This document shows, piece by piece, positions 19,134 through 19,360 of a DNA stretch of 64,000 nt. How positions within the stretch are numbered: position 1 is the stretch's first letter; each line of letters opens with the position of its first letter. This DNA is from Escherichia coli (GTDB taxonomy: Bacteria; Pseudomonadota; Gammaproteobacteria; Enterobacterales; Enterobacteriaceae). The position numbers were made by a program, and so were the translations under genes. Location of the stretch: the NCBI RefSeq assembly GCF_013315695.1, contig NZ_CP054353.1. The stretch is one strand, 5' to 3'. The notes beneath the pieces were generated by a model, which worked only from the letters and a program-made list of their open reading frames with translations, did not search any database and was not told the DNA's origin.

Positions 19134-19360
19134 ATGTTTAATCGTATTCGAATTTCGACCACGCTGTTTTTAATTTTGATTCTCTGCGGGATCTTGCAGA
19201 TTGGCAGTAACGGCATGTCTTTTGGGCATTTCGCGACGATTTGCAACGACTGAATCAGGCCGACCATCTTTCGTCGCGTGTGGCGGTATTTACCCTTGAA
19301 GAACATGAAGTAGCACGACATGAGTCGGCGCAGTTACAAATTGCGCCAGTGGTATCCTGA
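19134..19360 (+). pseudogene. tap: tap remnant (dipeptide chemoreceptor): internal deletion plus frameshift
   Basis: ATG 19134 with SD ggggag; first 30 codons MFNRIRISTTLFLILILCGILQIGSNGMSF match Tap; TGA at 19251-19253 in that frame; a +2 frame carries WAFRDDLQRLNQ then C-terminus-like ...VFTLEEHEVARHESAQLQIAPVVS to TGA 19358-19360; only 227 bp where about 1.6 kb is expected. Confidence 0.85.

Follow-up and report, generated by a model that had tools for sequence, protein, structure and literature searches.

The tar–tap–cheR locus and the tap remnant

The stretch of DNA analysed here (64,000 nucleotides of Escherichia coli contig NZ_CP054353.1, assembly GCF_013315695.1; hereafter the window) contains the E. 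coli tar–tap–cheRBYZ operon, in which tap is nearly lost. The gene order around the tap remnant is cheA, cheW, tar, tap remnant, cheR, cheB, cheY, cheZ, flhB and flhA. The upstream gene, tar (methyl-accepting chemotaxis protein II; plus strand, 17427–19088 in the open reading frame (ORF) list), is intact; its coding sequence of 1662 nt ends 45 nt 5′ of the tap ATG (RefSeq annotation of the matching Nissle locus). The remnant itself occupies 19134–19360 on the plus strand, 227 bp against 1602 bp in K-12, as delimited by alignment to K-12 tap and by the PGAP annotation of the matching locus, where it is labelled ‘frameshifted; incomplete; missing C-terminus’. The downstream gene, cheR (plus strand, 19379–20239; ORF list and RefSeq annotation), is also intact, with its ATG located 18 nt past the native tap stop and 125 nt past a premature stop described below.

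Alignment to the tap gene of K-12 MG1655 (b1885, 1602 bp), which encodes the dipeptide chemoreceptor MCP-IV, reveals two lesions and one SNP in the remnant. The first lesion is the shortening of a run of five T residues to four (T5 to T4), the second is an in-frame deletion of 1374 bp, and the SNP, at 19329, replaces a valine in K-12 Tap with an alanine. The match comprises 89 nt on the 5′ side and 138 nt on the 3′ side, with one SNP and one 1-bp gap; since the remainder is identical except for the SNP and the 1374-bp deletion, it is not a chance similarity. In terms of the intact gene, the first 89 nt and the last 109 nt are homologous to the window, and the start codon, ribosome-binding region, native stop and neighbouring genes are the same, whereas the window has T4 rather than T5, lacks 1374 bp (458 codons) and carries the SNP. 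The remnant is homologous to tap and is positioned between tar and cheR, but a full-length ORF with TarH, HAMP and MCPsignal domains is absent; with 39 codons in frame and 458 codons deleted, it is a pseudogene and not a functional tap.

The remnant shows all three hallmarks of the B2-lineage tap remnant allele, i.e. the 1374-bp deletion at the GAATCAGG repeats, T4, and the B2 flank marker (A at 19103), and the window belongs to E. coli phylogroup B2, whose strains are of the extraintestinal pathogenic type. Over 371 nt, the window is 100% identical to the tap pseudogene region of the B2/uropathogenic strains Nissle 1917 and ATCC 11775, with the same T4, the same deletion and the same position between tar and cheR; there is no difference within the remnant, and the window has the main-type rather than the ST131-type deletion junction (see below). 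Loss of Tap in B2/uropathogenic E. coli has already been published (Lane 2006; Borziak 2013; both as cited in PMC3559539 and PMC12623472). The feature is therefore a known pseudogene lesion of phylogroup B2, flagged as frameshifted in RefSeq, in a gene whose loss was already known in 2006. Taken alone it is of little consequence, being one lesion in an already known pseudogene; what is new is solely the probable order in which the lesions arose, a frameshift followed by recurrent deletion.

The T run and its distribution among complete genomes

The T4 run, the site of the 1-bp deletion, lies at 19220–19223 on the plus strand (sequence and K-12 alignment), where K-12 reads ATGTCTTTTTGGGCA and the window reads ATGTCTTTTGGGCA. 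In intact tap the T5 run spans codons 29–31 (TCT TTT TGG), with K-12 reading ATG TCT TTT TGG GCA (M28 S F W A). In the window, the frame that opens at the ATG (19134–19136) reads MFNRIRISTTLFLILILCGILQIGSNGMSF, continues as GHFATICND and terminates at TGA 19251–19253, a premature stop in the shifted frame that is located within the retained 5′ part of the gene (sequence and ORF list). This 39-codon frame (plus strand, 19134–19253; ORF 19131–19253 in the ORF list, and K-12 alignment) encodes Tap residues 1–30, comprising the N-terminus and the first transmembrane helix, plus nine out-of-frame residues. Read from 19223, the last T of the run, the translation is WAFRDDLQRLNQADHLSS...QIAPVVS; this segment (plus strand, 19223–19360; translation and K-12 alignment) is in the original tap frame, joins W31–Q42 to the last 33 residues of Tap and ends at the native stop, TGA 19358–19360. 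With this TGA located in the part of tap that is retained, loss of the T would by itself suffice to truncate a gene of full length; a full-length T4 allele (L014/L026; see below) has the same premature stop. An earlier note, made from the sequence of the window, had read both frames and had placed both stops and the T run at these same positions, and all are correct when compared with the sequence and the ORF list.

The distribution of the lesion was counted in 5426 complete RefSeq E. coli genomes. The deletion architecture (the end of tar to the start of cheR in one piece) is present in 1058 of these, and the tap interior in 4322. An exact 76-mer with T4 occurs in 1035 genomes and an exact 77-mer with T5 in 4063, so the expectation of the earlier note that intact tap has five T residues holds both for K-12 and on a population scale. 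Intact alleles are one T longer in an otherwise identical context (K-12 and the 4063 genomes), as expected for homopolymer slippage. T4 together with the main-type junction (exact 95-mer) was found in 902 genomes, T4 with the ST131-type junction (exact 95-mer) in 133, and T5 with the deletion (exact 96-mer) in seven. As 902 and 133 sum to 1035, every exact T4 copy lies within a deleted allele; the T4 count among deleted alleles is a lower bound (at least 1035), with 16 deletion-bearing genomes falling outside the exact T4 and T5 counts. A synthetic query combining T4 with an intact gene, based on K-12, has a perfect match in none of the complete genomes; the case that the earlier note had named against its own reading, an intact tap with four T residues, is hence not encountered there in a K-12-like full-length 5′ context. 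The T4 lesion is fixed in phylogroup B2, its carriers including Nissle 1917, the type strain ATCC 11775 and ST131, and it is absent from the full-length tap genes tested in this way.

Homopolymer miscounts are frequent in some sequencing technologies, and the count at this site varies between records in that seven assemblies combine T5 with the deletion; the earlier note had offered a sequencing error as an alternative, with the true strain having T5. Such an artefact should go unreproduced in related assemblies. Instead, the identical T4 is present in at least 1035 independent complete assemblies from many platforms, strain MSB1_4I, which has T4, is 100.0% identical to the window over 7.6 kb, and T4 was not detected among the 4322 genomes with a full-length tap (K-12-like 5′ context, complete genomes). 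A homopolymer error in sequencing or assembly is rejected on these population counts and has a vanishingly small likelihood.

At this site, T4 marks B2 cleanly, and reference-based polishing should not ‘correct’ it to T5; we suspect that a few assemblies may have been polished from T4 to T5. Separately, the Nissle assembly CP022686.1 (L012) has one T fewer than the other loci in a run of approximately eight T residues in the flhC–motA intergenic region, just downstream of flhC (around window position 11465). This difference is probably a homopolymer miscount; such errors do occur in long runs.

As in phase-variable homopolymer tracts, a 1-bp change in length switches the reading frame at the tap site. 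The tap tract is, however, just 4–5 nt long and essentially fixed (1035 T4 versus 7 T5 in deleted alleles), lacking the long tract and the frequent switching among close relatives that characterise a contingency locus; it is not a switch.

Deletion junctions and the order of the two lesions

The deletion removes 1374 bp, or 458 codons, between two copies of GAATCAGG at K-12 tap positions 119 and 1493, and its in-frame junction lies at 19252–19266 on the plus strand, as established by comparison of the repeats with K-12 tap. The perfect 8-bp core of the repeat is located at 19252–19259; the wider repeat is imperfect, matching at 13 of 15 positions (GAATCAGG-T/C-CGA-G/C-CA). The window has the main type of junction, with CCGACC at 19260–19265. 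The ST131-type junction, with T at 19260 and G at 19264, is present in 133 genomes, ST131 strain 2822 among them. These two bases are exactly those that separate the 5′ from the 3′ repeat copy, with the bases of the 5′ repeat (TCGAGC) being kept. TCGAGC was found at the 3′ repeat in no intact tap of the collection, and the idea that this junction simply inherited a variant 3′ repeat was therefore rejected. Since its bases match the 5′ copy, the ST131 junction reflects a crossover at a different point of the imperfect repeat, a few bases on, rather than two random substitutions, and the existence of two junction types implies two deletion events. Both types carry T4, so on grounds of parsimony T4 preceded at least one of the deletions. 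The GAATCAGG pair seems to be a recurrent deletion site.

Metagenome contigs were searched for T4 joined to the undeleted 5′ repeat, which gave one match, OLHG01000032.1. This contig (ERZ1749178 NODE_32; L026) is 102,963 bp long with a coverage of 5.7×. Further sequence was obtained by looking up the 474-residue product, starting at M60, expected from a gene caller, and 21 kb were retrieved; a corresponding look-up of a 497-residue product with a TTG start gave no match. The contig has T4 in a full-length tap that is free of other lesions, with both repeats in the ancestral state. For approximately 7 kb upstream and 745 nt downstream of tap it is identical to ST131 strain 2822, so that removal of 1374 bp from the contig haplotype gives the ST131 remnant. 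Over the 545-nt stretch compared, the tap interior of the contig shares 99.8% identity with a non-B2 allele. Elsewhere, at L026 positions 18337–18825, the contig keeps yecT (LprI family, 162 residues) between flhE and argS, a segment that is missing from the other B2 loci examined; the contig copy differs by 2–3% from K-12 yecT. The contig could be chimeric, or could stem from a very precise recombination; points against a chimera are the identity to ST131 on both flanks, the length of 103 kb, the 5.7× coverage, a private SNP in tap and the divergent yecT.

A look-up of the 474-residue product with the Combat11I9 allele led to an unrelated Mu-type insertion in tap. In this sequence (Logan ERR2223687_163; L027), MuA-like and MuB-like transposase genes (620–3672) are located directly upstream of a 5′-truncated tap, which is a different route to tap loss.

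The seven genomes that combine T5 with the deletion are FCI5, FCI23, FCI29, HH45, HH97, Z1323CEC0015 and EcN_Sk. The three FCI genomes have B2 flanks and all come from one project, and FCI5 shows no SNPs over 20 kb relative to Nissle, which has T4; on these grounds their T5 is likely a polishing artefact or a very recent reversion. The other four have non-B2 flanks. HH45, HH97 and Z1323CEC0015 (L004, L005 and L006) carry the 1374-bp deletion with the main-type junction and T5 on three different non-B2 haplotypes. Comparison of HH45 with Combat11I9, which has an intact tap, reveals two differences in 2300 nt upstream and none in 1500 nt downstream, which points to an independent recent deletion in HH45. 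The non-B2 flank marker (C at 19103) occurs together with T4 and the deletion in none of the genomes. The deletions outside B2 were hence not acquired by import of the B2 allele, and transfer of that allele into non-B2 strains was rejected on this ground. In the fourth, EcN_Sk (NZ_CP172017.1; L003), the whole 20-kb locus agrees with K-12 at almost every SNP position from flhD to flhA, and nevertheless has the B2/Nissle indel structure, tap deletion included, with T5. This ‘Nissle’ assembly looks like a reference-guided or mixed-read artefact.

Taken with the two junction types, the full-length T4 allele on an ST131-identical haplotype makes it probable that the frameshift preceded the deletion. 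The evidence for this order consists of one metagenome contig of 5.7× coverage plus parsimony, and FCI5, FCI23 and FCI29, with their B2 flanks and T5, would favour the reverse order if they were real and basal. In that reverse order, the same real change from T5 to T4 would have been a second, neutral hit in a remnant that the 1374-bp deletion had already left dead. The location of all 1035 exact T4 copies of the complete genomes within deleted alleles fits such a sequence of events, as does the existence of genomes with T5 and the deletion, but four of those seven genomes have non-B2 flanks and represent separate events or artefacts. Deletion first would further require that T4 arose twice independently, or that a pair of point changes, 4 nt from each other, by chance recreated the bases of the 5′ repeat in the ST131 junction, and the full-length T4 allele would have to be a chimera or the product of a precise re-insertion with a crossover within 45 nt. 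We regard this order as unlikely. The earlier note had described the frameshift as lying on top of the deletion; both lesions are real, but the second place that this wording implied for the frameshift is the less likely one in view of the T4 shared by the two junction types and of the full-length T4 allele. Its remark that slippage is an early pseudogene lesion is in accord with the frameshift coming first.

The explanation that we favour, and consider probable, is a vertically inherited loss of one T that became fixed in B2 as the first inactivating lesion of tap and was followed by at least two independent 1374-bp deletions. We infer the primacy of T4 from the contig and the junctions described above. 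The proposed course of events begins with the loss of one T at tap codons 29–31, presumably by replication slippage. With this loss translation ends after 30 native and nine missense residues, such that no receptor can be made, and the lesion is inherited vertically and fixed in phylogroup B2. The 1374-bp deletion between the imperfect repeats (13 of 15 positions), by slipped mispairing or recombination, would then have taken away the greater part of the dead gene, on at least two independent occasions within B2. Viewed thus, the tap locus is a tidy case for the dating of pseudogene lesions, with a point frameshift first and recurrent repeat-mediated deletion afterwards.

With T4 in a full-length tap, the untranslated stretch before cheR would be 1499 nt, as compared with 125 nt in the window, and the deletion could have been favoured because it relieved polarity. 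When the 1499-nt stretch was scanned by C/G composition, no Rho-site-like signal emerged; the C/G ratio reached at least 1.3 in three of 237 scanning intervals, fewer than in neighbouring genes. A scan of 18900–19500 for promoters and terminators gave no motif. In view of both scans, polarity relief is speculation. A more elaborate form of the same idea holds that tap decayed in B2 in two steps, the second of which, the deletion, was selected: approximately 1.5 kb of mRNA upstream of cheRBYZ, either untranslated or internally re-initiated to yield a product without the first transmembrane helix (TM1), would have been harmful, through polarity or a rogue receptor fragment, and would have been removed repeatedly, at least twice in B2 and by the same deletion on three or four non-B2 haplotypes, whilst the 39-residue TM1 peptide may still be made. 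We think it very unlikely that selection of this kind was at work.

Possible function of the remnant and other features of the window

In all likelihood the T4 site serves no function itself and is a relic left by the decay of the gene. A functional reading would have the remnant yield a 75-residue fusion by programmed −1 frameshifting, or retain the 39-residue frame as a membrane micro-protein made up of the Tap N-terminus and the first transmembrane helix. The ribosome-binding region and ATG of tap are intact, and the 39-codon ORF, which is occasionally annotated by gene callers with a weak TarH Pfam match, is unchanged in more than 1000 genomes. There is also a precedent in Tls, a truncated remnant of trg in B2, which is likewise a degraded chemoreceptor gene of the same phylogroup that was long annotated as a pseudogene, and which is functional (PMC12623472). 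Tls retains a stretch of approximately 150 residues from the signalling domain and acts via FlhDC to repress flagellar genes (PMC12623472); the tap remnant differs in having no signalling domain, whereas Tls has a regulatory role. Programmed frameshifting is opposed by the zero-frame codons, AUG UCU UUU GGG, which contain no canonical slippery heptamer (pattern X XXY YYZ; UCU does not fit XXY), by the 4-nt run, which is too short for efficient slippage, and by the 75-residue trans-frame product, which would lack every Tap domain. As for a micro-protein, conservation is uninformative, the B2 remnants having almost no substitutions with which to test selection, and the nine C-terminal residues are a by-product of the frameshift. 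Either function would, on this analysis, be highly improbable.

Several further features of the window lie outside the remnant. Within cheR, at 19786–19990, there are approximately ten SNPs that are private to the window among the 11 loci compared, with the B2 and non-B2 loci both having the other allele; the cluster also occurs in MSB1_4I and in a small number of further genomes with at least 99.9% identity to the window. This pattern points to a recombination patch of small size. With scores above the Rfam gathering cut-off, there are matches to the MicL sRNA (plus strand, 29270–29577), to C0465 RNA (minus strand, 17302–17379), which lies between cheW and tar, and to ES036 (minus strand, 33513–33555).

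Upstream in the window, motA is interrupted after approximately codon 93 by a 1426-bp IS4 element at 11820–13245, which divides the gene into pieces at 11541–11819 and 13246–13866. The transposase ORF of the element (448 residues) is on the minus strand at 11833–13179, and the insertion, spanning 11808–13257 with its flanks, is bordered by a 12-bp target duplication, CGGCAGATGGGG. The motA–IS4 junction occurs in none of the 5426 complete RefSeq genomes. Because motA is interrupted by IS4, the strain should have paralysed flagella.
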